The notes under the pieces: generated by a model | The model's input: only the letters and a program-made list of their open reading frames with translations | What the model was told of the DNA's origin: nothing | Databases searched by the model: none | In this document: positions 1 to 40,983 of the stretch, in pieces | Layout of the letters: every line of letters starts with the position of its first letter | How positions within the stretch are numbered: position 1 is the stretch's first letter | Translations under genes and position numbers: made by a program | Source of the DNA: Patescibacteria group bacterium | GTDB taxonomy: Bacteria; Patescibacteriota; Minisyncoccia; UBA6257; JAKLIH01 | Direction: 5' to 3' | Assembly: GCA_022705625.1 (NCBI GenBank) | Contig: JAKJEE010000002.1 | Location: forward strand, 1-44,612 | Length of the DNA stretch: 44,612 bases

Positions 1-2456
1 GATTGATTCTTGCCAAACATTTCCCCTGGCCCACGTAATTTTAAATCGATTTCAGCCAATTTAAAACCATCATGGCAATCAACCATGGCCTCTAATCTTT
101 CTTTTGTAGTTTTACTATTTGACTCGGTAAAAAGAAAACAATATGATTGATAATTACCCCGGCCAACTCGACCACGGAATTGATGAAGTTGAGATAGTCC
201 AAAACTTTCCGTGCCCATGATCAACATGACGCTCGCATTAGGAACATCAATACCAACTTCAATAACGGAAGTTGCAACCAATAAATTAATTTCATTATTA
301 TAAAACTTTTTCATAATCAATTCTTTCTCTTTGGATTTCATTTTACCATGAAGCATTTCAATTTGAAATTCGGGAAAAACTTTTTTCATCTTTTCCACTT
401 CTTTCTTGACGGCTTTAACTTCATAATTTAAAAGCTGATCAAAAGAAAATAAATTTTTGGCTTTTTTAGTGCCGTCTTCATTGGTTTCTTCAGCAATTTC
501 AATCCGAGGGCAAATCACAAAAGCTTGGCGTCCATTTTTTATTTCTTGGCGAATAAATTCAAACATTGGTTTCTCTTTTGATTTGGTCACGATTTTGGTT
601 ATAATAGCTTTTCGATTTTTAGGCATTTCGTCTAAAATTGATAAATCCAAATCACCGTAAATTGACAGTGCTAATGTGCGTGGAATTGGCGTAGCAGTCA
701 TGGATAAAAAGTGCGGAAGCAATACGCTATCCAAACAATCCGAACAACCCGAACGATTCGAATATTCTGAGTTCAAAACTCTTTTGGGTTTTAGATATTT
801 TTGAGTAAAATTTACTAATAAGCCCAGCTCTAAATTTGTTGTTTTTAAATATCTCAAAATTTGATTATAGTCAATTTTCTCGATATATGGCTTTGACTTT
901 AACTCAACAATAATTTTATCTTCGATAATAAAATCAGCAAAATTTGATTTTATATCAGCAATTTCGATCGGGACTTCTCGCTGAAAGTTAATATTATTTT
1001 CTTTTAATTTTTGTGCCAATAAATCGCCATACTGCCTTTCGCGACAAAATCTACCAATTTCATCGTGAATTTCAAGGAATATTTTATTCAACTTAAAAGA
1101 TAAATCTTTTTCAATAATTTTATCATTTTGATGTTTTGTTGCTTTCTCTTCGGATAATTCGGATGGGTTCGGGTTGTTAGGGTGGCGAAGCAGTTCTTTG
1201 CGCTGTTTGATACCAAAACGATGTTGTTCATCAATAATAACCAAACCTAATTTTTCAAAATCAATATTTTTTTGGATTAAAGCATGGGTGCCAACTACCA
1301 ATCACTGAGTGCCCTCTTTGATACTCTTTAATAAATATTCTTTGGAAACTTTACCTTCGATAAAGCCATCTTTAATTTGAACCCCTTCGCCAGTCATTAA
1401 AGCAACTTTTATATTAAATGGTTCCAAATATTTTATAATACTTTGATAGTGTTGTTTGGCTAACACTTCGGTTGGTGCCATAAAAGCCACTTGTCAACCC
1501 TGTTTTATACATAATAAAGCCACAGATACTGCTACAATGGTTTTACCCGAGCCAACATCGCCTTCCAGTAAACGATTCATTGGCGATCCACTTTCTAAAT
1601 CTTTCATCACATCCCAAATGGCTTTCTTTTGAGAATTGGTTAAAATAAAAGGTAGAGTTGATAAAAATTGCTTTGTTAAATCAATGTCGGCTTTAATTTT
1701 TGGAGCTTTATTTTTTGACATCTTGTCTTTGATACGCATTAAATGAAGTTGAGTTAACAACATTTCTTCAAACACAAAACGATTGCGAGCTTGAGTGGCC
1801 TCGTCAATTGTTTCGGGAAAATGGATTTTGTGCAAAGCATCTTTTAAATTAAATAATTTATTTCTTCTTTTAGTTTCGGCCGGTAAATAATCAATAAATT
1901 CTGCGTCGAATGTATCTAATAATCTTTTAACATAATTGCGCAACATTTTAGAACTCACTCCACTGGTTTCTGGATATACGGGGATTAAGCGGCCAGTATG
2001 CTTTAAATTGTTAATATCAATATCTTCGTAATCTTCTTTGCCAGAAATAATTTCAAAAGCTGGACTTTGGAAAACAAAATGTTTGCCCTTGGTTTTGGGT
2101 TTGCCAGAAACAGTAACAATCGTGCCGTTTTTAATTTGATTAGCAATAAACGGCTGGTTAAACCAAACTAAATCAGCCGACCCAGTGTCATCAATAATTT
2201 TACCTTCGGTTAATAGTATTTTGCGTCGATAAGTTCGATAGCTTTTTAATTTTTCAACTTTACCAATAATGGTGGCTGGTTCATCAAGTTGCAAATCAAT
2301 AATTGGCTTAATATTAGTAAAATCTTGGTAACGAAAAGGAAAATGTCACAATAAATCTTTTATGACATTGATGTTTAAATTTTTTAGTTTGTCTTGATAA
2401 TATTTGCCAACCCCATAGAGGTTAGAAATATCATCGGTTAGTTTTATATCGGACAT
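1..2456 (-). CDS. recG: ATP-dependent DNA helicase RecG. The C-terminal end runs off the window. Read with TGA=Trp (in-frame TGA at 1302, 1494 and 2346).
   Basis: The frame is open from ATG 2454-2456 down to position 3, with no TAA/TAG (checked codon by codon for 3-1301). Motifs present: GDVGSGKT, VIIDEQHRFG, MTATPIPRTLA, QLHQFRGRVGRG. ORF-track pieces 1302..1490 and 1494..2294 share this frame. Confidence 0.9.
723..1187 (-). other. In-frame ~155-aa insertion in RecG between motif II (DEQH) and motif III (TATPIPR). It encodes a PD-(D/E)XK nuclease-like GxxExxY/PDDEXK_3-type domain and is bounded by imperfect ~35-bp inverted repeats.
   Basis: The translation IGRFCRERQYGDLLAQKLKENNINFQREVPIEI..ADFIIEDKIIVELKSKP..QILRYLKTTNLELGLLVNF..KRVL matches my recollection of the GxxExxY family, including the D...ELK catalytic-type motif. 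The normal RecG spacing here is about 20 aa. The inverted-repeat arms are 735-770 and 1146-1184 and share the core AACAACCCGAAC. Confidence 0.6.
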
Positions 2457-2514
2457 ATTAAATATTTATAGAAATATTTTAACAAATTTTTGAATTAATG
2501 TCATTATAAAAAGA

Positions 2515-9192: not shown

Positions 9193-9771
9193 ATGAAATA
9201 CATTATTGTTTTGTGTCAAGGCATCTCGACCAGTGGCGAAGTGTCCCCTCAAACCAAACAACTTATTCGATTTGTTTTGGATAAGGGAATGTCTACACAA
9301 ATAGATGTTGGAAAAATTATTGTTTCTGGCGGATACAGAGACAAAAATGGCAATATCGAAGCTGATACGGCTAAAAAGTATTTGCGACTTTGTCATGCTG
9401 CTATGGTTGATCCACAATGTGTCACTACCATATTTTTTATGGACAGCTTTATTTTCGAAAGAAGCTCGTCTTTCAAAAAAGGCGGTAATATCTCAAATTT
9501 AGTTGAGAGCCGCAAGATAATTCAAGCAGAGTTGGGTTTAGGTGATGAAATCATTATCATTACCAGTAAACCGTGCGCTTTCCGAACTATGTGGGCAGCC
9601 AGACGAGTATTCCCCGAACAAAAAATCAAAATTATCGGTCAAAAAATGATTTATGGTAACAATGTTCAATTCCGAAACAGCAATGAATTGATTTTTTGGA
9701 TCTGGAATTTCATACTCACTATTGCCACCATTGTGTATTTGTTTTTATCTCCGATCCAAAATGAAAAATGA
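9193..9771 (+). CDS. DUF218 (YdcF/ElyC-like) family protein, 192 aa. Under table 4 it would read on to the TAA at 9808-9810.
   Basis: The SGGYRD..EADTAKKYL pattern fits DUF218. An AAGGAG Shine-Dalgarno site is present. All three Trp codons are TGG. It ends in TGA, followed by a terminator hairpin. Confidence 0.7.
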   Translation: MKYIIVLCQGISTSGEVSPQTKQLIRFVLDKGMSTQIDVGKIIVSGGYRDKNGNIEADTAKKYLRLCHAAMVDPQCVTTIFFMDSFIFERSSSFKKGGNISNLVESRKIIQAELGLGDEIIIITSKPCAFRTMWAARRVFPEQKIKIIGQKMIYGNNVQFRNSNELIFWIWNFILTIATIVYLFLSPIQNEK

Positions 9772-9777
9772 ATTCTA

Positions 9778-9808
9778 AAAGGCCGCATGCAAATTGCCCC
9801 GGCCTTTT
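9778..9808 (+). terminator. Intrinsic terminator hairpin AAAGGCCG..CGGCCTTTT.
   Basis: It starts 7 nt after the TGA at 9769-9771. Confidence 0.6.
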
Positions 9809-9828
9809 AAAGTTTGCGATTAATCAAT

Positions 9829-12363: not shown

Positions 12364-13122
12364 TTATTTTCATTTTTCTTCTTTGAGAGCATTCTCGGCC
12401 GCTTTTTCTTCGGCATCTTTTTTAGACCAACCTTCACCCATACCTATTTCTTGGTTGTGAATTGAAACCGAAACGGTATAAAAAACTTGATGAGCTGGCC
12501 CAACCGATTTAATAACTTTATAGTTTGGTGCTTTTTTGTAAAGTTCTTGCATTTTTTCTTGTAATAAACTTTTGTGATCTTTTTGATTACTTTTCTCGGC
12601 AACTTCGTTAATAAAATCTTTCAAAATATCAGTAATAACATTTTTGGCAACTTGAAATCCCTGATCTAAATAAATGGCGCCAAATAAGGCCTCGACTGCA
12701 TCCGCTAAAACATAACATTTTACTTTGGACTCATCGATAGTTTTTTCATTTAATTGAGACAAAAATTGTTCAACGCTCATTCTCTCTCCTTTGGATATAA
12801 AAATATATTTGTCTAAAGATAAAGATAATGCAATTTTTGACAGCATTAAGGAATTAACTAAATTGGCGCGTAGAGGCGTTAAAATACCTTCCGGCAAATC
12901 AGGATATTTGGAAAAAATAAAATCAGAACTTGAAAGTTGTAACACGGCATCGCCCAAAAATTCTAAACGCTCATTATGTTTATAAGGTCATTTTTTGTTT
13001 TCGTTTAAAAACGAACTGTGGGTAAGTGCTTCAAAAAAATATTCTTTTTTTCTGATTTTTATTTTGAAATGATTTTCAAAATATTGTAGAGCTTCGTCTT
13101 TACGATGTTCTCAATTGGTCAT
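12364..13122 (-). CDS. rnc: Ribonuclease III (about 252 aa). In-frame TGA=Trp codons are present. The old TGA stop at 12370 is read as W-K-stop.
   Basis: Motifs present: HNERLEFLGDAVL signature and a C-terminal dsRBD (GPAHQVFYTV..GEGWSKKDAEEKAAENAL). The frame was checked from 12901 to 13122. Confidence 0.9.
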
Positions 13123-14077: not shown

Positions 14078-14180
14078 ATTAATTCGATTTAACAGTGATA
14101 TTGTATCATAAAAAATGATGTTTTACAAGAGCTAACGCTACCCTAACAATCCTAACATCCCAAATTATCCCCGCTGCGCT

Positions 14181-14556
14181 CCCCCAAACTAACCAATAAT
14201 AAAGTCAAATGTCAAATGTCAAATGTCAAAAATGAAAATTCCAATATCCAATAAACAAGAATAAAGTCAAAAATCCCCCACACTAACCAATAATAAAGTC
14301 AAATGTCAAATGTCAAATGTCAAAAATGAAAATTCCAATATCCAATAAACAAGAATAAAGTCAAAAGTCCCCCACACTAACCAATAATAAAGTCAAATGT
14401 CAAATGTCAAATGTCAAAAATGAAAATTCCAATATCCAATAAACAAGAATAAAGTCAAAAGTCCCCCACACTAACCAATAATAAAGTCAAATGTCAAATG
14501 TCAAATTTCAAAAATGAAAATTCCAATATCCAATAAACAAGAATAAAGTCAAAAGT
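14181..14556. repeat. Tandem array of 4 x 94 bp. Each unit is CCCCCA(C/A)ACTAAC + (GTCAAAT) heptads + AATTCCAATATCCAATAAACAAG.
   Basis: The CCCCC landmarks at 14181, 14275, 14369, 14463 and 14557 give an exact 94-bp period. The units are nearly identical. Confidence 0.95.
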
Positions 14557-14655
14557 CCCCCACACTAACTTTACAATAGAACGGTAATATTAGTTAAGAG
14601 AAGCGAAAGATAGTAGATAAATTATGGCATGTATTTAGTAAAGTTAATGTGGGGG
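14557..14655. repeat. 99-nt hairpin/MITE-like element H1 with 18-19-bp terminal inverted repeats CCCCCACACTAACTTTAC..GTAAAGTTAATGTGGGGG.
   Basis: The architecture and length match the elements at 19728-19826 and 19893-19991. Confidence 0.8.
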
Positions 14656-16056: not shown

Positions 16057-18210
16057 TTAATTATATTTTTCAACCATTAAAAGATTGTGGCGATTGGGCA
16101 ATAAGCTTCAAATATATTCGGTTATAAACGGAATAAACGGATGAAGCATTTTAAGATTATTTTCCAAAATCTTTAAGAGTACATATTGAGCTTGAGTTTT
16201 GTTTTGATTATTTTTAATATCTTGTTTCAAATCTTCAATAATTTTATCAGCAAAAGTAAACCAGAAATATTTATATAGTAGCGTGCTAGCGCCAGTTAAA
16301 TTTAATTTATCAAAAGCTTTTTGATATTTTTTTACGATTTCGTTATTATTGTCTAAATATTTTTGGTATTTGCCGTCGAGAGCAACGGTTTGAAAATCAA
16401 AATCGGCAATATTCATTAAAACAAACTTGGAAACATTTCAAACTTTATTCACAAAATTGCGGGCACCAATAACTTTATCATCAGAAAAAGCTAAATCATC
16501 CCCAATTTTTGTGCCGTAGAGCATTGATCAACGCAAAACATCGGCCCCATATTGATCACAAATAGTCAGCGGGTCAATGGCATTACCCTTGGATTTAGAC
16601 ATCTTTTGATGATTTTTGTCACGAACAATACCGTGAAGCAACACTTGTTTAAACGGAACATGATTAGTTTTGTATAAGCTCATCATAATCATACGCGATA
16701 CTCAGAAAAAGAGTATATCATACCCGGTCTCCATCACATTGGTTGGAAAATACATTTCAAAATCGTTTTTTAAATTTAATTTTTGATCTTTAATGTTTGA
16801 TTTTGAACTACTTGACGATAGGAGAGTGGCAAATGGTCATTGGCTTGAAGAAAATCAAGTATCGAAAACATCTTGATCTTTTTCTCAACCTTCACCTGGA
16901 CATTCTTTTTGAATTTTTATACTCTCGCCTTTAAATCAAGCTGGAATAGGAATACCTCAATAAATTTGACGAGAAATATTTCAATCTTTCAATTCTTTCA
17001 TTCAATGAAAGAAAGTTTTTTCAAAGCGTTTAGGAATAATTTGAACATCGCCTTTTTTAACGGCTGCCACGCCTAAATCACGTAATGATTTTTTTGTGTC
17101 ATTGATTGGTTTAGTCATAGCCACAAATCATTGCGGAATAACTAATGGTTCGATTGGAGTATTACATTTATAGCAAACGGAAACATTATGCTTATAGGGC
17201 TCTTGTTTGACGAAGGAACCTTGGTCGGTTAAAATTTTGATGGCTTCTTCTCTCGCAACTTTTGGTTTAAGACCAGCTAATGGCCCAGCATTATTATTCA
17301 ATTTTCCATCAAGATCAATAATCGATCTAAAACCAAGATTATTTTTTTGGCCAATCTCAAAATCAACTGGATCGTGGTTGGGAGTTATTTTGAGAGCACC
17401 GGTGCCGAATTCAATATCAACACCTTCATCAGCGACAACAACGATTTCTCGATTGGTAATTGGTTCAATAACTTTTTTACCAATTCAAGTTTTATATCTT
17501 TTATCTTGAGGGTTAACGGCTATAGCCAAATCGCCAGGAATAGTTTCAGGGCGAGTAGTGGCTACGGTTAAAAAATCATCACTGTCAATTGATTTATATT
17601 TTAGATAGTATAGAAAACTGTTTTCTTCTATATATTGGGTTTCTAAATCAGATAGGGCTGTTCGATGTTTTGGGCAATAATTAACAATGCGATTGCCACG
17701 ATAAATCAAGCCATCATTATACATTTGTTCAAAAGTATCATAAACAATATCGACAATTTTTGAATCAAGAGTGAAGGTTTCACGACTTCAGTCACATGAA
17801 CTACCTAAACGCTTAATTTGTTCGTTCATATGTTTTTTGTTTTCTTGAGTAAAATTTCAAACTTCATTATAGAAATCTTGCCTTTCCATTTGAAAGCGAG
17901 ATCTGCCTTCTTTTTCTAATTTTTTTTCATACACGACTTGCGTTTCAAAACCAGCATGATCGGATCCAGGAAGTCATAAAGTTTTTTTACCTTGCATTCG
18001 TTGATATCTAATAATCGCATCTTCAATGCTCATAACTAAACCATGACCTAAATGTAAACTACCATTAGCATTGGTTGGTGGCATAATAATACAAAACGGC
18101 TCTTGATTTTCTTTAGGCAAATTATCGGGATTAAAAAAACCGGACTTTTCTCAAGTTTGATAAATATTTTCTTCTACGTTTTTATGATCATAGGCTTTGG
18201 GTAAATCCAT
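16057..18210 (-). CDS. valS: Valine--tRNA ligase, short form (717 aa, no C-terminal coiled coil), with many in-frame TGA=Trp.
   Basis: Motifs present: [14 protein letters not shown] (HIGH), [37 protein letters not shown] and [13 protein letters not shown] translated the whole gene by eye. Only parts were checked codon by codon. Confidence 0.88.
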
Positions 18211-18265
18211 AATGTAAATTCAGCGTATAATAATGATATTATATCATAAAAAAGATAAATGTAAA

Positions 18266-18294
18266 TAAAAAATGAGCCGGGAATATCCCGGCTC
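18266..18294 (-). terminator. Canonical intrinsic terminator (GAGCCGGG..CCCGGCTC plus T-run) starting 8 nt after the TGA of ORF 18303..19007.
   Basis: It has a GC-rich 8-bp stem and a 5-nt loop, followed on the minus strand by TTTTTTATTT. Confidence 0.8.
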
Positions 18295-18302
18295 ACCCTT
18301 AC

Positions 18303-19007
18303 TCATTTAAAGGATTTTTTCAAGACTATTGCCGAAGCTGATTCTGGTATACTGTTATAACTACCTATCGACTTGACATAAATAAAGTTCTCTAAAGGTT
18401 GGCCGAACCTATCGGTAGCAGACAATATATTTTCCATGATTAAAAATCGCACATTGGAATCGGAGAATAAGTTAATTGGGTTATATGAAACAAGGAGTTT
18501 TTCGCCAAAGGGCTGGTTAGTATATTGACGCCGGAAAACAATTATTTCATCAATACTTAATTCCCTAAGGCCAAAACTATCAGCTAATTCTTTAAGCTCT
18601 TCCTTCCTTGGGGTTGTTGTTCCAAAGAAAGTTTTAAAATCCATTTTGAACAAAAGCAACTTATTTTCTTGGTCACTTTTGTTATTACTTACATGGTGTT
18701 CTAAAAACTCCCTCATTAGAAAGTCTGCAATAAACATGTCGTCATACGCAAAATAAGTTCGTGCATCACTATTATTCTGATGCAAACAACTTATTTCTCT
18801 TAACATCTCCGTGACCTGACTAGTATTGTAATCAAGCCTTAACCAAGGAACCTTGGCTAGAACTTGTTGTACAATAAGATTAGCATGGGCTTGTGAATTC
18901 ATAAACTGGAACCAATCTTCTTCATCACGTCCAACCGCTTCAAGACTTTTAATAATTAAATAGTTTACCCTTAAAAGCCTACCCAACACGTTAATAACTT
19001 TACTCAT
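18303..19007 (-). CDS. Hypothetical 234-aa protein (cassette gene) with no family I can recognise.
   Basis: A GGGAGG Shine-Dalgarno site is present. The ATG overlaps the stop of the small upstream ORF (ATGAGTAA). Both Trp codons are TGG and there is no internal TGA. It is GC-richer than its neighbours. Confidence 0.6.
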   Translation of the reverse strand: MSKVINVLGRLLRVNYLIIKSLEAVGRDEEDWFQFMNSQAHANLIVQQVLAKVPWLRLDYNTSQVTEMLREISCLHQNNSDARTYFAYDDMFIADFLMREFLEHHVSNNKSDQENKLLLFKMDFKTFFGTTTPRKEELKELADSFGLRELSIDEIIVFRRQYTNQPFGEKLLVSYNPINLFSDSNVRFLIMENILSATDRFGQPLENFIYVKSIGSYNSIPESASAIVLKKSFK

Positions 19008-19104
19008 TTTTTCCTCCCACCTTTCCTCCTATATCAATAGGCATCCAGGTATTTAAATAGTAGTCGCCGCCTGTCATAATATTATTTATGATTTCTTGCG
19101 CCAT
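19000..19104 (-). CDS. Possible 34-aa leader/partner peptide, translationally coupled to the 234-aa ORF.
   Basis: The ATG is at 19102-19104. The TAA overlaps the downstream ATG. The ORF-track M at 19209 is an alternative start that lies inside the promoter. Confidence 0.3.
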   Translation of the reverse strand: MAQEIINNIMTGGDYYLNTWMPIDIGGKVGGKNE

Positions 19105-19170
19105 TTTGGTAAGGATATTCCCAACCAAAATGGTGCAAGAAATACTTATTGTAAAAGATCTAATTAGTGG

Positions 19171-19199
19171 CATTATACCACAAAATACTGCCAGTGTAA
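19171..19199 (-). promoter_or_regulatory. Promoter TTTACA-17-TGGTATAAT (extended -10) for the 18.3-19.1 kb cassette.
   Basis: The hexamers lie at 19194-19199 and 19171-19176, with TG at the extended -10 position. Confidence 0.6.
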
Positions 19200-19237
19200 A
19201 TAAACACAAAAAACCGCATTGGCGGTTTTTTGTGAGA

Positions 19238-19437
19238 TTTATTTTTGTTATTGTTTGAGTATTGAATGTTGAATATTGGAATTTGAAAAACCGTGTTAAC
19301 GGTTTTTTGTAGTCCCGCTTCGCTCCACTACTAACTAAAGTTAGTGTGGGGGTTTATTTTTGTTATTGTTTGAGTATTGAATGTTGAATATTGGAATTTG
19401 AAAAACCGTGTTAACGGTTTTTTGTAGTCCCGTTTCA
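19238..19437. repeat. Two direct ~114-bp units: the inverse-orientation relative of the 94-bp unit, plus the hairpin AAAACCGTgttaACGGTTTT, plus an S hairpin.
   Basis: The unit TTTATTTTTGTTATTGTTTGAGTATTGAATGTTGAATATTGGAATTTG.. is repeated from 19238 and from 19353. Confidence 0.8.
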
Positions 19438-19533
19438 CTCCACACTAACTTTATGATAGATTTTGTCTGTTCTATAAGCTTAGTATTATTGTTAAACGTT
19501 ATATTGTTTATTTTTAGCAAAGTTAGTGTGGGG
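19438..19533. repeat. Hairpin element H4 (divergent member, about 96 nt).
   Basis: The terminal inverted repeats are CTCCACACTAACTTTAT..AGCAAAGTTAGTGTGGGG. Confidence 0.7.
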
Positions 19534-19538
19534 ACTCG

Positions 19539-19578
19539 CCCCGCTTCGCTCCACTACTAACTAAAGTTAGTGTGGGGG
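19539..19578. repeat. REP-like hairpin S3.
   Basis: The sequence is CCCCGCTTCGCTCCACTACTAACTAAAGTTAGTGTGGGGG. Confidence 0.8.
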
Positions 19579-19628
19579 TTTATTTTTGTTACCGAAAGTT
19601 TTATTAAAAACTTCCGACAAAAATCTCG

Positions 19629-19700
19629 TAGCCCTAAGGAGAATCGAACTCCTATTGCCAGATTGAAAATCTGATGTCCTGACCATTAGACGATAGGGCC
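19629..19700 (-). tRNA. tRNA-Glu (anticodon UUC).
   Basis: The cloverleaf has acceptor GGCCCTA/TAGGGCT, D arm GTCT-AATGGTCA-GGAC, anticodon stem TCAGA/TCTGG with loop TTTTCAA, and T arm AGGAG-TTCGATT-CTCCT. No CCA is encoded. Confidence 0.9.
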
Positions 19701-19727
19701 AAAGAAAAAGCTCCAACATTCAATAGT

Positions 19728-19826
19728 CCCACCACACTAACTTTACGTTAGAATTACAATACTTGCTAATGGATGTGATTGTAATAAATAATTCTTATCA
19801 TATCTATAGTAAAGTTAATGTGGGGG
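19728..19826. repeat. 99-nt hairpin element H2.
   Basis: The ends are CCCACCACACTAACTTTAC..GTAAAGTTAATGTGGGGG. Confidence 0.8.
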
Positions 19827-19892
19827 CATAGCAATATCCAAAGAGAAGTTACAATATTCAATAAACAAATAAAAATTCCAATATTCAATATT

Positions 19893-19991
19893 CCCACCAC
19901 GCTAACTTTACATTAGAATGGTAATATTAGTTAAGGGCTATAAACATTTTAAACAAATTATACTATGTATCCAGTAAAGTTAATGTGGGGG
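19893..19991. repeat. 99-nt hairpin element H3.
   Basis: The ends are CCCACCACGCTAACTTTAC..GTAAAGTTAATGTGGGGG. The interior shares GGTAATATTAGTTAAG with H1. Confidence 0.8.
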
Positions 19992-20235
19992 CAGGCGCCT
20001 GTCAAAAATGAAGGTCATAATACAGAAAGAAGAAATTGGAAGCAAAATAACCATACCCTTTTCTTAAATTAAAGAAAAAAGTTCAAAACTAACGATGATT
20101 AAAAGTGTAAGGACGTGGTTTTGCTTTTGACCATAAATATACTATCATATTTTGGGAAAAAATCAACATAAAAATCGTTCTTGTAATTTGAATGTTTTTA
20201 ATGTATAATAAAAAATAATAAGAAAATAAAAAATT

Positions 20236-21309
20236 ATGAAAATTTTATCGATTGAAACGTCTTGTGATGACACAGCTATGGCGATAGTTGAATGTAATGG
20301 TACTTTAAATAATTTGAGTACTAAATTAATATCAAACGCTATTTCTAGTCAAACAAAACTTCACGCAAAATCAGGTGGAATTATTCCCAATTTGGCGGCT
20401 AGAGAACATGAGAAAAATTTAATACCGATTTTTAATGAAGTCCTGAGATTGGCGAAAATAAAAAAGCAGAATCTTGGAAAAGAAATAGATTTAATTGCTG
20501 TAACTAAAGGACCGGGATTACAACCATCTTTATTGATGGGATTAAATTTTGCAAAAACACTGGCATATATATTAAATAAGCCAATCATTGGGGTCAATCA
20601 TTTGCTTGGCCATATTTTATCTAATTTTATAAAAAATAATGAAGAGTTTAAAAACGAAATAAAATTACCTTTAGTATGTCTATTGGTTTCTGGTGGACAT
20701 ACTCAACTTTACAAAATTAATTCGTGAGATAAGATTGAACTAATGGGCGAAACTTTGGATGATGCCAGCGGAGAATGTTTTGATAAGATTGCAAAAATAA
20801 TGAAATTGGGATATCCTGGTGGAGTATTTGTTTCAAAGATAGCTGAACAGTTCAGAAATAAAAATAAAAATTGTAAACAAGAATTTAATTTACCAAAACC
20901 ATTAATTAATTCAAAAGATTATAATTTTAGTTTTTCGGGATTAAAAACAGCAGTATTATATTTAGTTCAAAGATTAAAAAAAGAAAAGAAATTTAATAAA
21001 AAAGTTTCGGAGAGAATTTGTTTTGAGGCAGAAGAAGTTATCACAGACGTGTTAGTTCATAAAACTTTGAAATTGGCCAAGGATATAAATGCTAAAACCG
21101 TCATGATATCTGGCGGGGTATCAGCTAATCAACGATTACGGTCAAAGTTTTTAGAAAAAATTGGAGGAGAATTTGATTTTGTTTGCCCTGACAAATTAAT
21201 GTCGACTGATAACGCCGCGATGATAGCCATTGCTGGCTATTATGAATATTTAAAAGGTAAAAAAGACGATTGTTTAACGTTAGAAGTTGATGCGAACCTC
21301 CAAATTTAA
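20236..21309 (+). CDS. tsaD: tRNA N6-adenosine threonylcarbamoyltransferase TsaD (357 aa), with one in-frame TGA at 20725.
   Basis: Motifs present: ILSIETSCDDTA, GVNHL.GH and GETLDDASGECFDKIAK..GYPGG. The two ORF-track pieces share a frame. Confidence 0.92.
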
Positions 21310-24434: not shown

Positions 24435-26837
24435 TTAATTTTTTAAATCGTTTATTTTCTTTTGAATTTGACGATCTTCTAATTTCTTTAAAAACTTTTT
24501 ACCATTTTCATTTTTAGTAATATAAACTCAAGATGCCCCGGTAATTAAAATACTTAAGCCAGTAACAATCATTCCCGTTTCCATTGGACCAGTAGCAATT
24601 GTTGAAGCGCCTAAAACGGCACTATAAGTCACGGTGGCGCTATCGCTAACAGTAGTCACGTCATCAGCTTTAACTTCGGCCGTGTTAGTTATAGTGTAGT
24701 AGGTACCAGTTTGATTGGCAATAGCCTGAAAAGTAATAATTTTTTTATCGCCTGGCTTGAATGTGCCAAGATTGATACCCACAGTAGCAATACCATCAAC
24801 ATTTTGGACACCATCAATTTTTGTAGTATTAACATAATAGCTTAATGGCGCTGGTAAGCGATCAATTACAATTGTGTTGTTAGCATACTTAGTAGCGTGA
24901 ATATTGGAAATTAACAAATAAAATTCAACGACATCACCTTGTTTGGCATTAACAACTTTATTATAGGAACGATCGCCGTTTGATAAGTTTCTACCTAATT
25001 TTGTGATTGTTAAAATTTTATCAGTTTGTTGATCTAAAACATTAACCACCACGGTGTCAGAAACAGTCGAACCATTGGTGCCATTACAAGTAATTGTGTA
25101 AGTAGTGGTGTTGGTAGGAGAAATTGTTTCGCTACCATAAGTTGATTTGTTTCCATTTCAACCATTAGAAGCATAACATGAGTTAACGTTGTTTGATGAT
25201 CAAGACAGAACAGCTGTTTGTCCTCTATATATAGTAGAAGGATAAACCGATAAATCAACAGATGGACTTACTTCTCTAACTGTAACTGTTACAGTGTCAG
25301 AAGCAGATGTATATTCGTTATAACAAGTTATAGTATAAATAGTTGTAGCTGACGGCGTAGTTGTTTCACTGCCATACATTGACTTAGAACCGCTTCAGCC
25401 ATTTGAAGCTACACAATAAGTGGCATTACTTGATGTTCAAGTAAGAACTGATGTTTGGCCTCTATCAACTATAGTTGGATTAGCAGTCAGATCAACAGTA
25501 ATATTTTTCTTAGCACAAGCATTGTTACAAGTAGTTAGATCCAAATATAAACCATTGGTATCTTGAAGACATTGACCGGTTGATTGATTACAAGAATATT
25601 TTATAATTGGTTTTTGACAAGCATAAAAACATTCGGTGTAAGAAGAGTATTGGCCAATGGTCGAAACTAGACAAGCATAAGTTGATAAATTACATTCGTA
25701 TCTTGGCAAAGGTGTTTCAGCTATACATTCAGCCGCACAAGCGTTATATGAACTATATTCACCGAGACCAGAAACATTACAAGCATAGGTTGTTCGGTTA
25801 CAGGTATAACGTGTGGCTGGAGGTTGGGCTGGAGTACAAGCCGATTGGCATTCACTTAATGAAGCAAAATTGCCTAAACTTGAGGTGTAGCATTGATAGG
25901 ATGAACGATTACATTCATAACGTGTGGCTGGAGATGTATAAGTACAAGCCGATTGGCATTCACTTAATGAAGCAAAATTGCCTAAACTTGAGGTGTAGCA
26001 TTGATAGGATGAACGATTACATTCATAACGTGTGGCTGGTTGTTCATCTTCAGTAATATTAATTGAACAAGTAGCCGATTTAGTTTGGTTCTTTTCATCA
26101 GTTACGGTAACCTTAAAACTTTTAAGACCTTTGGAAGTAAAAGTTTTATAAAGAATACGAGAGTAACCACTAACATCACCACTTCAAGAGTATGAATAAG
26201 GAGATGTGCCGCCAGAAACTTCAGCATAAATTTTAATTTCTTGATCTGTTTTACCACTAGTTGGAGTGGTATAACAAGCCACAGTAATTGGATCAGCTTC
26301 TTCTTCGACAGTAAAAGCTCGAGTGTTGCTAACGCCTAATGTTGGATTATTAGTAGTATTGTTATATTTTTCTTCAGCATAAACTCAAACTTTACAATAT
26401 TTATAGTTAGCCACTCAAGAAGGAATACTTCAAGAAAGGCTAGTATTGGAAGTTGTTCAGCCAATAGTGTTGTTGTCATTAGCAAAATCAATGCTATTGC
26501 CACAACCAAATCTGACTAAATAAGCACCAGGGGTGGCGCCAGTTTTAGTTCAACTAACGGTAACTGTTTTATTAGGAACAACATAACCACCTTTAACAGC
26601 TGTATTGCGAGCTGAAGAGCTAGTATCTGAATCAGTATAGCCGTTGACAGTAATGGAAGTAATAAAAATAGTACAAGATTTTGTGTTGTTAGGAGAAATA
26701 TCCGGACAAGCACTGGGATTACCATTTTTGTCGGCAATAGTTAAGGCGTTAGCTTGATTATTATTAAGAAAAACCAAGGCGCTTACAATTACGACCAAAA
26801 CGATAAACAATTTTTTATAAATATTTGAGTTTTTCAT
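24435..26837 (-). CDS. Secreted/cell-surface protein (800 aa). It has a signal peptide, five Cys4 ~35-aa repeats, Ig-like/DUF11-like domains and a C-terminal hydrophobic anchor. It contains many in-frame TGA=Trp.
   Basis: The frame was checked for TAA/TAG across all gaps between the ORF-track pieces (24528, 25437 and 26550 share a frame). The N-terminus MKNSNIYKKLFIVLVVIVSALVFL is a signal peptide. The C-terminus reads ..ATGPMETGMIVTGLSILITGAS-W-VYITKNENGKKF. Confidence 0.85.
25836..26038. repeat. Intragenic near-perfect tandem duplication (period 108 bp = 36 aa) encoding two identical Cys4 repeats.
   Basis: ACAAGCCGATTGGCATTCACTTAATG...GTGTGGCTGG occurs at 25836 and again at 25944. Confidence 0.9.
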
Positions 26838-35683: not shown

Positions 35684-36013
35684 TTAGATAGGAATATCCA
35701 ATTTGGATACTTCCTCTTTTGCCTCTGAAATTCTTCTTTCAAATTCTTGTTGCTGCCGCAACGACTCGTTGAACCATTTACGCATTTTCCAGAGGTAATC
35801 AACTGCTTCCTCTAGAGTCAGGGGAATCCAACATGAAAAGTTGTTGCAAGGGCTTTGGTCGTAGTAGGAAGCGGAATAACCGCTTTCATTCTTTCTCACC
35901 CGCTGAGTCTTATTGTTGCACGGATGCGTTCCGAGCAACTCTTCTCCATTTTGCATAGTTGCAAGGTTTTCTCTTGCAACTGTCTTCGAACTGATCATCT
36001 TACTTATTAACAT
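35684..36013 (-). CDS. Hypothetical 109-aa protein (cassette gene).
   Basis: A GGAGGG Shine-Dalgarno site is present. Local GC is about 43-45%. All three Trp codons are TGG. The stop is TAA. Confidence 0.5.
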   Translation of the reverse strand: MLISKMISSKTVARENLATMQNGEELLGTHPCNNKTQRVRKNESGYSASYYDQSPCNNFSCWIPLTLEEAVDYLWKMRKWFNESLRQQQEFERRISEAKEEVSKLDIPI

Positions 36014-36532: not shown

Positions 36533-36967
36533 TTAATTTCCAGTAGGAGTTGTGTGGTCCTCCTGGGACAAAATCCAAGTCTTGTCTTTATAAGAGACAT
36601 AAACTCGGTTTTGCCCAAGGGAAGTACCTACTGATGAAGCTATCTCATCCAATAAAGATTGAACTTCTTCATCAGGTAAGTTCCGTGCATAAAGCACGGA
36701 CACTTCTCCTTGGAAATTTGCTACTGGTTCAGAGGCTCCTTGAGCCTCTCCTTTTCCTTCTGACCAAGCATAAACTACTTGGCCGGGAAATACATTCCCG
36801 GTAAGGAAAGGAAGGCCTTTTGAAGCCCTTTCTTTCATCCATCCTTTTAAGAGGTCAACTGCCTCTTCAAAAGAATGAATTTTGCCAGTATCTCCATAAC
36901 CTTCTTGCAGACCGAAAGTTATGGAGAAAGGCCTTTTGACTCCTTCGGAGTCAAATATTTTTTTCAT
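36533..36967 (-). CDS. Hypothetical 144-aa protein (cassette gene).
   Basis: A perfect AGGAGG Shine-Dalgarno site lies 6 nt upstream. The 60-nt sample I counted is 43% GC. All three Trp codons are TGG. The stop is TAA, followed by the hairpin CCCGCAG..CTGCGGG. Confidence 0.6.
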   Translation of the reverse strand: MKKIFDSEGVKRPFSITFGLQEGYGDTGKIHSFEEAVDLLKGWMKERASKGLPFLTGNVFPGQVVYAWSEGKGEAQGASEPVANFQGEVSVLYARNLPDEEVQSLLDEIASSVGTSLGQNRVYVSYKDKTWILSQEDHTTPTGN

Positions 36968-37419: not shown

Positions 37420-37889
37420 AAAAACTCCATTGCTTTAACCGCTAACCAGCAGATGAAAGAAAAGGAGTTTTCTTTGACTTTTATATGTTAAATATAAAAT
37501 TATCTGCCCGCTAATGCGGCTAAATTTAGCACCTTTCTATATAGTAATAGAAGGTTGCTGGATAACTATAACGAGTTAGTTCTCATAACTACATAAATAT
37601 AGTTTAGTTATCTCTCAGGATAATTATTAAATTGTTATTAAAGAACGAACAAATTGTATAAAAAGAAAAACCTCTTTCGTTTATTTCGCAAGACGTACGG
37701 AATAAAAGAAAAAGGGTTTGAGTATTCTTTTATCCGTCCGCAATTTGCGGCTGAGATTAGCACCTTATTATGTAAATAGGTTGCTGGATAGCTGTGACGG
37801 GTCAGTTCCCGTAACTATATATAAATATAGTTTTGCTATCGCTCTAGATAATATCTTTCTTTTGCTTAAGAACAATTTGATTTTGTTGT
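37420..37889 (-). ncRNA. Putative ~470-nt noncoding transcript carrying two tandem paralogous ~127-nt structured modules (37728-37853 and 37498-37625).
   Basis: A consensus promoter lies immediately upstream. The modules are about 70% identical and share the same helices. Compensatory changes are seen (GATAAC/GTTATC vs GATAGC/GCTATC, and ACGAG/CTCAT vs ACGGG/CCCGT). There is no ORF. A distal hairpin AAAACTCC..GGAGTTTTTTT lies at about 37421-37471. Confidence 0.5.
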
Positions 37890-40477: not shown

Positions 40478-40983
40478 ATGTCGCAAAATATTCAGAAACA
40501 AAAGTGCGTGACACTTTAAAGTATGTCGCAAAATAATGCGTGACAAGTGAAAATGTCACGCGCGTGACACTTTGACAGCGTTTTTTGACTTTTAAAATAT
40601 AAATAATAGCTTATTGAATTGTCACGCGCGTGACAATTCAATAAAAATCTCAATTTCCAACAACCAACACCCAAATAATAAATAAAAGATTGGATCAACC
40701 AATAGTAATTAGTAAATATAAAAATAATCAAAATGTCACGCGCGTGACAATTCGATAAAAATCTCAATATTAAATAATCAACATCCGAAGAATAAATATA
40801 AGGTTAAATTAGCAAATAACAGTAAATAAATATAATAAAAATAATCAAAATGTCACGCGCGTGACACTTTGACAGCGTTTTTTGACTTTTTAAATACAAA
40901 TAATAGATTATTGAATTGTCACACGCGTGACAATTAAAATGCCATGTCGCAAAATATTCAGAAACAAAAGTGCGTGACACTTT
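40478..40983. repeat. Iteron/operator-like array: five 16-bp palindromes TGTCACGCGCGTGACA plus half-sites, nested in ~88-bp direct repeats and bounded by 40-bp direct repeats.
   Basis: The palindromes lie at 40554-40569, 40620-40635, 40734-40749, 40851-40866 and 40917-40932 (the last with 1 mismatch). The direct repeats ATGTCGCAAAATATTCAGAAACAAAAGTGCGTGACACTT lie at 40478 and 40944. Confidence 0.9.

Follow-up and report, generated by a model that had tools for sequence, protein, structure and literature searches.

What becomes of a gene that closes with TGA when its cell translates UGA into tryptophan? The question is raised by ORF-X, a gene on the minus strand of positions 1 to 44,612 of contig JAKJEE010000002.1 (assembly GCA_022705625.1, a Patescibacteria group bacterium); this whole stretch of 44,612 nucleotides is referred to below as the window. 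According to the open reading frame (ORF) calls, the coding sequence of ORF-X runs from an ATG at 19007 through 234 sense codons (18306..19007) and is closed by a TGA codon (18303..18305), which the standard code reads as a stop and this organism as Trp. A predicted intrinsic terminator follows within a few nucleotides, and beyond it lies valS, the gene for valyl-tRNA synthetase (ValRS). The original prediction for this locus, made from the window alone, saw two ways to explain the arrangement: either the gene was written for UGA=stop and is now mis-terminated, or the decoding of UGA depends here on context. In this report we describe the anatomy of the locus, the homologues of ORF-X and the distribution of its alleles, and we lean, with some reserve, towards a reading in which the TGA allele is a stop-loss variant that the cell tolerates, in a gene it can do without.

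The genetic code of the host

The code is fixed as UGA=Trp by valS itself (16057..18210, minus strand), whose 717 codons include 17 TGA and a single TGG. When aligned with the T. thermophilus ValRS (1GAX), 12 of the 17 TGA codons fall on Trp, the other five on Leu, Phe or Tyr, and none on Gly. Because these codons align with Trp and never with Gly, the code is translation table 4 and not table 25 (UGA=Gly), which is ruled out; the premise of the original prediction, that valS demands UGA=Trp, is thus borne out. Across the window, Trp is encoded by 88 TGA and 35 TGG codons, and of the 26 other complete ORFs, 23 stop at TAA, three at TAG and none at TGA. The window resembles known table 4 bacteria (Mycoplasmatales, several insect endosymbionts and the JAKLIH01 group) in having in-frame TGA at conserved Trp positions, in the dominance of TGA in core genes, and in ending its normal genes with TAA or TAG.

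In GTDB data with one genome per species, the nearest ValRS genes belong to Patescibacteria metagenome-assembled genomes (67-82% identity) and include one on contig JAKLIH010000006.1 (80% ValRS identity), from the assembly that gave JAKLIH01 its name. The valS genes of nine relatives carry 13-17 in-frame TGA codons each. Reassignment of UGA to Trp was first reported in Patescibacteriota for the family JAKLIH01 and the genus GCA-2747955, both of class Minisyncoccia, in a preprint of May 2026, which describes loss of prfB in the recoded group and a tRNA-Trp(UCA) in most of its genomes (doi 10.64898/2026.05.24.727570). A paper of August 2026 gives Bacillota, Pseudomonadota and Verrucomicrobiota as the only phyla previously known for this reassignment and adds Actinomycetota. 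Judged by the 80% ValRS identity, on which the placement rests, the host is probably a UGA=Trp Patescibacterium of class Minisyncoccia and the JAKLIH01 group, and from the literature on that group we infer that its genome lacks release factor 2 (RF2).

The idea that TGA codons just before TAA or TAG are fossil stops was considered and dropped, as five were observed where 2.2 were expected (P = 0.07). RNase III (12364-13122, minus strand), which ends ...EEK-TGA-AAA-TAA-TAA, might have been such a relic; however, its C-terminal TGA (the Trp of ...EKWK) aligns with a Trp that is conserved in relatives, standard-code ones included, and the possibility is ruled out. In the contig of one relative (L030), a TGA in a fragment of a penicillin-binding protein falls in the stretch GW..GDT..SIGQG, which appears to be a conserved motif of these proteins.

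The end of ORF-X and its terminator

The coordinates given in the original prediction are all confirmed by the sequence: ORF-X closes with TGA, a canonical terminator begins 8 nt on, and if the TGA is taken as sense, 43 more codons lead through the hairpin and into the start of valS before the first TAG (18176-18174). The read-through frame (18174..18302, minus strand) consists of 42 codons past the TGA and this TAG, which lies 34 nt within valS (ATG at 18210). Along its course lie the terminator, the valS promoter, the valS 5' untranslated region (UTR) and the first 12 valS codons, and it offers no nearby backup stop, the next in-frame TAA or TAG being the one 43 codons on. Because it is translated from the T-rich signal sequence of terminator and promoter, the tail is aromatic and hydrophobic, with a 19-residue stretch of moderate hydrophobicity (maximum mean hydropathy 1.65).

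The terminator (18263..18294, minus strand) has the stem GAGCCGGG/CCCGGCTC (18294-18287 and 18281-18274), of 8 bp with seven G-C pairs and extendable to 10-15 pairs, a 5-nt loop (ATATT), and a T-run at 18272-18263; the U-tract after the stem reads A, TTTTTT, A, TTT (18273-18263). A consensus scan of the 11-kb region ranks it first among the terminator-like sites, and as RNA the 66-nt stretch has a folding energy of -25.5 kcal/mol, compared with -10.6 +/- 2.7 for shuffled sequences (z = -5.6), with none of 200 shuffles folding as well. The hairpin has the sequence features of a Rho-independent terminator, and transcripts would be expected to end there. The TGA stands 7-8 nt before this hairpin. 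Elsewhere in the window, terminators lie 2-36 nt past the true TAA stops of PPDK, RNase III, a tRNA-binding protein, Tmk and an 800-residue surface protein, and since these stops precede their terminators in a similar way, the TGA of ORF-X is located where a stop codon belongs.

ORF-X is a lineage-specific accessory protein gene with its own transcription unit, since a terminator and a promoter precede it and a terminator and the valS promoter come after it. The consensus scan places the preceding terminator at 19234-19205 and the ORF-X promoter, TTTACA-17-TATAAT with an extended -10 TG, at 19172..19200 (both minus strand). The valS promoter on the same strand (18238..18265; TTTACA-16-TATAAT, also with an extended -10 TG, 11/12 matches) begins inside the T-run of the ORF-X terminator.

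A C-terminus shared by the family

Homologues of ORF-X were sought with a word-indexed search, which returned four clusters, and with an exhaustive profile search of 1.8 billion representative proteins, which returned ten hits; the DNA was recovered for every homologue found. The 11 other distinct alleles or paralogues end at a common C-terminus with the consensus ..SIILVKK (variants ..SI(I/V)L(T/V)(N/D/K)K), where the window has ..AIVLKKSFK. Their stops are TAA or TAG only, located 2-3 codons before the position of the window TGA, and each is followed 2-45 nt on by a terminator hairpin of its own and, in most, by a valS-type promoter. The 43-residue tail is absent from all 11. Since all homologues stop at this point and none conserves the tail, the gene is built to end at the TGA position. 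A 43-residue extension conserved among UGA=Trp relatives would have spoken against the original prediction, and none was found: every homologue stops at the shared C-terminus.

These comparisons make it very improbable that read-through is functional, with the tail serving as a membrane anchor or with translation through the hairpin coupling ORF-X to valS. An anchor could be seen in the moderately hydrophobic stretch, and coupling in the end of the frame 34 nt inside valS, as a ribosome sitting on the hairpin would block its formation (transcription-translation coupling). Yet the other members do without a tail and have real stops before their hairpins, the composition of the tail follows from T-rich terminator and promoter sequence, and in the window and all relatives alike, a near-consensus promoter of valS's own follows the terminator directly. 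Moreover, the tail region of the window differs at only two positions from that of three further contigs with the same allele (L009-L011), and both differences change amino acids.

Two other candidates were rejected. Programmed stop-codon read-through with a conserved extension is ruled out by the TAA or TAG stops of 11 of the 11 other members. As for a selenocysteine UGA, there was no match to a SECIS or any other Rfam element (gathering score or E <= 1), the homologues have a stop and not Cys, and the hairpin after the TGA carries a U-tract and is of the terminator and not the SECIS type.

A mosaic 3' cassette

The TGA allele is present in three further independent assemblies from different projects (L009, L010 and L011), where ~5 kb match the window at 99.8-99.9% identity. 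Within the 3' part of the gene that we describe below as a cassette, all three match the window at 227 of 227 aligned bases, including the TGA and an A6 homopolymer, TTGAAAAAATCC, 9 nt upstream of it. That run invites the suspicion that the TGA is an artefact of sequencing or assembly, or stems from a frame error, as one A more or less would bring a TAA into frame, with both alternative frames reaching TAA within 3 codons. Since the same allele stands in three independent assemblies, however, we do not regard it as an error and give an artefact hardly any credence. This recurrence, the C-terminus of the other members, the spacing to the terminator and the TAA or TAG ends of the 26 other ORFs together mark the pattern as no mere coincidence. 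Against slippage it also counts that an A6 run is too short for efficient transcriptional slippage.

A sister allele ending in TAG is found in L001-L006 (seven contigs), which belong to the same species and, with the cassette left out, share 98-99.5% identity with the window across 11 kb. Measured against L001, the window keeps 99.8% identity (520/521) over the 5' UTR and as far as codon ~158, drops to 56.6% for the remainder of the ORF and to 47% between stop codon and hairpin, and returns to 99.2% from the T-run on. The divergent block is a 3' cassette of ~260 nt (18273..18534, minus strand) comprising codons ~159-234, the TGA and the terminator stem, and its junctions lie in the most conserved motif of the protein, EIIVFRR, and in the T-run/valS-type promoter. 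Such a pattern would be the expected outcome of homologous recombination between diverged members of the family. Because the junctions fall in family-specific conserved blocks, it points to a donor with the same locus architecture, which would place the donor inside the recoded group. The 3' part of L001 in turn resembles another member, L008 (76%, compared with 60% in the 5' part), so that cassette exchange is common in the ORF-X family.

The last codons of the window gene, AAA AAA TCC TTT AAA TGA, align with sequence in the 3' UTR of other alleles (AAAAATCCCTAAACAAG in L001; ..GTTAAATAG.. in L007), across a gap that spans the stop codons of those alleles. This suggests that the ancestral stop may have been lost through a small deletion, in an alignment too divergent for certainty.

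Alternatively, the cassette or the whole ORF-X gene pool may derive from, or have passed through, a background in which UGA is a stop, such as an unsampled relative, a phage or a plasmid. The TGA would then have been a genuine stop in the donor that lost its meaning on import, with the same consequence in the present-day cell as a local stop loss. We regard this as possible, if doubtful. The cassette does take in both the stop codon and the terminator, and the locus adjoins tRNA-Glu and varies in presence and copy number: L012 and L015-L018 have no ORF-X between thiI and valS and L019 and L033 have two copies, which marks the gene as dispensable. On the other hand, the cassette junctions imply a donor from the recoded group, and the locus holds no phage or mobile-element genes and gave no PHROG or BFVD matches. 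No ORF-X homologue in a standard-code context was found among the 1.8 billion representative proteins, and every contig with a homologue also holds TGA-containing core genes. No donor sequence turned up in the databases searched: the family-alignment scan found none in genome contigs, the metagenome scan recovered only the window's own allele, and the protein-search hits (4 + 10) included no close match.

Of the claim that the gene was written for UGA=stop and is now mis-terminated, the second half stands, as the homologues all stop at this point with TAA or TAG and have no tail. The first half is unproven, as TGA occurs only in the 260-nt cassette of one allele and all sampled members reside in UGA=Trp genomes. 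That the stop was lost locally is no less likely than that the sequence was imported from an organism with the standard code.

Expected consequences of the TGA allele

We therefore return to the reading that we favour by a modest measure of confidence, namely that the TGA allele is a tolerated stop-loss variant, probably with reduced output, of a dispensable and fast-evolving gene. Homologous recombination would have replaced the last ~75 codons, the gene end and the terminator stem with a divergent cassette, bringing UGA to the conserved C-terminus at which other members have UAA or UAG. In a cell with a UGA-reading tRNA-Trp and no RF2, the allele would lack a working stop, so that Trp would be inserted and translation would continue.

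The fate of the ribosomes would then depend on the transcript. On terminated transcripts, with a predicted 3' end at ~18263-18270, ribosomes would arrive at the end of the RNA after ~12 more codons, having added W-VRVSRDIPGSFF(I), and would form non-stop complexes. A transcript that ends before any decodable stop is a textbook substrate of ribosome rescue (tmRNA-SmpB, ArfA/ArfB). The complexes on ORF-X would need such rescue, with the product either tagged by tmRNA and degraded or released as a protein with a short tail. Where transcription passes the terminator instead, ribosomes would stop at the UAG at 18176-18174 within valS, after adding 43 extra residues derived from terminator, promoter and valS-start sequence.

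Absence of in-frame TGA from the ORF-X family

Several observations weigh against the stop-loss reading. A cost would be expected of such an allele, whether from tmRNA tagging or from a hydrophobic junk tail, but four assemblies carry it. The genes on which the proposed fate turns (prfB, tRNA-Trp(UCA), tmRNA and SmpB) do not lie in the window or the fetched loci. The family also avoids the codon: 15 ORFs, comprising the ORF-X family and one neighbouring hotspot gene, contain no in-frame TGA, 22 TGG and 198 out-of-frame TGA, whereas valS fragments on the same contigs contain 49 TGA and 4 TGG (Fisher p = 2.5e-12 against the ORF-X family). Given the family's preference for A over G at third positions (0.67), the chance of finding no TGA in 16 Trp codons is 1.8e-8, and since synonymous sites are near saturation and the Trp codons stand in different alignment columns, these counts are close to independent. 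Some contigs had been gene-called with the standard code, and the resulting bias was judged limited. Members from contigs annotated under table 4, or recovered independently of gene calls (the window, L007, L026, L019a and L019b) have nine TGG and no TGA, and the only fragmentary hit, P0130, is ended by the contig end and not by a TGA. The absence of TGA throughout the family is unexpected if UGA is an ordinary Trp codon for ORF-X mRNAs, and leaves room for UGA not behaving as a sense codon in this gene.

ORF-X is further distinguished by its translation start and codon usage. It is among the very few genes led by a Shine-Dalgarno sequence, here a strong one (AGGAGG..GGGAGG, 19030-19013, minus strand), whereas core genes have none. 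In the window and its relatives together, Shine-Dalgarno-led ORFs contain 5 TGA and 12 TGG, compared with 327 and 88 in the rest (p = 3e-5). The bias of ORF-X towards A-ending codons is the weakest among core-region genes (0.62, compared with 0.78-0.91). The few Shine-Dalgarno-led genes of the window are ORF-X (19013-19030), orf109 (35684-36013), orf155 (36533-36967) and orf205 (9193-9810); they prefer TGG and are less A-ending. The 800-residue cell-surface-type protein (24435-26837, minus strand), which has Cys-rich repeats and an exact 108-nt tandem duplication (repeat 25833-26039), contains 11 TGA and no TGG, so that a probably abundant surface protein does not avoid TGA.

The Shine-Dalgarno sequence lies within a conserved, structured 5' leader of ~160 nt (19008..19165, minus strand), which is conserved far better than the protein it precedes. 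RNAalifold predicts 34 pairs, ten of them with compensatory changes, and among its elements are a main hairpin of 22 bp (19143-19091), a 5-bp helix, and a UACCU/AGGUA helix adjoining the Shine-Dalgarno sequence. The leader is found 5' of each ORF-X copy in L007, L008, L019, L025, L026, L028, L030, L032, L033 and L034. It matched no Rfam family and is a candidate for a new cis-regulatory RNA.

The absence of TGA, the Shine-Dalgarno sequence and the leader fit three readings that they do not separate: high expression, with selection against slowly decoded UGA in ORF-X; a gene pool that passes through backgrounds in which UGA is a stop; or expression under conditions in which UGA is not decoded as Trp. 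For the second of these, and hence for a standard-code origin, it speaks that the family is free of in-frame TGA despite saturated synonymous sites, that the weak A-ending bias goes together with a strong Shine-Dalgarno sequence where core genes have none, and that there is a precedent in the code-11-compatible phages of code-25 candidate phyla radiation (CPR) bacteria, which are without in-frame TGA (PMC10746230).

The third reading would make UGA an effective stop for ORF-X, because tRNA-Trp(UCA) is limiting or absent, because a phage supplies RF2, or because the codon is close to the 3' end of the transcript. The allele would then be fully functional, and the family would avoid internal UGA for that reason. 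We consider this unlikely, although it would account for avoidance so strict that it holds even at newly arisen Trp positions, for a TGA standing where the stop belongs, 8 nt before a terminator, and for the persistence of the allele in four assemblies. Neighbouring genes on the same chromosome, however, use TGA for ~80% of their Trp codons; RF1 does not read UGA, and the JAKLIH01 group is reported to be without prfB. An acceptable TGA stop should also appear more than once, and 11 of the 11 other members use TAA or TAG. A search against Rfam found no SECIS-like or other known recoding element.

A broader form of the same idea is that the ORF-X family is a chromosomal 'standard-code' gene set within a recoded bacterium, in which case the UGA in the window would be a genuine, working stop. 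We think this improbable as well. Its genes would then lack UGA, and carry a Shine-Dalgarno sequence, a strong sigma-70 promoter, a structured leader and a terminator, because they have to be translated in circumstances where UGA means stop. Such circumstances might arise when an infecting phage brings in RF2 or eliminates tRNA-Trp(UCA), or when the genes are expressed in a standard-code partner to which they have been transferred. As for the context-dependent decoding of UGA put forward in the original prediction, no other member of the family ends in TGA, and what speaks for it is indirect, namely the lack of in-frame TGA across the family. No bacterial mechanism for context-dependent UGA decoding without RF2 is known. 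Given the absence of TGA, the Shine-Dalgarno sequence and the structured leader, ORF-X may yet have a standard-code origin or a separate decoding regime.

The ORF-X protein, its locus and other features of the window

ORF-X gave no match in Pfam (above threshold), NCBIfam, PHROG or PADLOC. The only Pfam hint, to a CorA-like Mg2+ transporter, scored 21 bits against a cut-off of 27 and appeared in one of 12 members, and was rejected. An AlphaFold model built from 12 sequences reached a pLDDT of 83, whereas a run with four sequences (pLDDT 44) was unusable; the predicted fold has no PDB or BFVD match at E < 0.5.

The gene occupies a hotspot with the conserved order tsaD, tRNA-Glu(UUC), sometimes thiI, zero to two copies of ORF-X, and valS (window 19007-20236; also L001, L012, L015-L020, L028, L031 and L034). 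The window hotspot is without thiI, and its 1.2-kb gap contains only tRNA-Glu (19628-19700) and repeats. Intergenic repeats with the core CCCCCACACTAAC or its reverse complement are located at 14180-14569 and 19238-19450 and scattered over 19340-20050, in arrays of 94 nt x 4.1 copies at 98% identity and 115 nt x 1.9 copies. A further array, of 114 nt x 2.1 copies with GTCACGCGCGTGAC palindromes, lies at 40620-40866. Assembly GCA_029557075.1 holds two different tsaD...ORF-X...valS loci, L001 (JAKPRR010000035) and L031 (JAKPRR010000051), from related organisms, and this bin is therefore mixed.

Farther away, an S-adenosylmethionine (SAM) riboswitch (Rfam RF00162, 45.4 bits) is located at 37727-37854 on the minus strand. 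A second, similar element at ~37510-37620 on the same strand lies ~200 nt downstream; each is followed by a hairpin and T-run, and the two look like a tandem riboswitch pair. They lie inside an island of higher GC content (0.42) and Shine-Dalgarno use at 34.7-38 kb, which includes orf155 and orf109. RecG (3-2465, minus strand) has an insertion of ~150 residues between the helicase motifs DEQHRFG and SMTATPIPR (LSFKLNKIFLEIHDEIG...LGLLVNFT...), which looks like an inserted small domain or gene.

Relation to known systems and significance

Table 4 bacteria, the family JAKLIH01 among them, provide the closest comparison for ORF-X. What differs is that one allele here has TGA at an end defined by its homologues, and that one chromosomal family avoids TGA altogether; neither feature is described for the group in the literature consulted. 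A second comparison is with the code-11-compatible phages of UGA=Gly CPR bacteria (Gracilibacteria, Absconditabacteria), which have no in-frame TGA and sometimes have TGA-ended genes (PMC10746230). ORF-X is similar in being without in-frame TGA in a UGA-recoded Patescibacterium and in having one TGA-ended member. Those cases, however, are phage genomes whose TGA stops are backed by a nearby TAA or TAG, whereas ORF-X is chromosomal and syntenic, with no phage genes nearby and no backup for 43 codons. Regarded as a dual-code element, it has the TGA-free frame but neither the nearby backup stop nor the phage or mobile surroundings.

Three further systems share parts of the pattern. Unlike the usual non-stop mRNA, that of ORF-X would owe its non-stop state to the genetic code and not to RNA damage or truncation. 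In ciliates without a dedicated stop (Condylostoma, Parduczia), UGA is Trp inside genes and a stop near the 3' end of the mRNA (PMC4967479), and the UGA of ORF-X is likewise close to where its transcript is predicted to end, at ~35-40 nt. The likeness goes no further, as the ciliate eRF1 recognises all three stops, whereas no factor for UGA is left in a bacterium that lacks RF2. Finally, the allele is like other stop-loss alleles in having lost its effective stop, in extending into the 3' flank and in having a tail that is not conserved. It differs from them in that its codon would still end translation under the standard code, and the loss depends on the code of the cell. Although its components are known, the case is thus new in that the genetic code itself makes the allele a stop-loss one, in a lineage whose recoding has only lately been recognised.

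How genes and gene flow adjust after the recoding of UGA to Trp in Patescibacteria, first reported in 2026, is an open question. The polymorphism within one species between a TAG and a UGA end offers a natural case of a recoded cell facing an 'orphan' standard-code stop, and the mosaic family to which it belongs, UGA-free and led by a Shine-Dalgarno sequence, indicates that codon reassignment affects the genes of one genome unequally. If the avoidance of UGA reflects expression level only, it is a modest curiosity. If UGA should prove to be a working stop for ORF-X, the locus would be a natural case of two decoding regimes in one genome. And if the avoidance reflects gene flow or such a second decoding regime, it would bear on the role of a changed code as a barrier to gene exchange.

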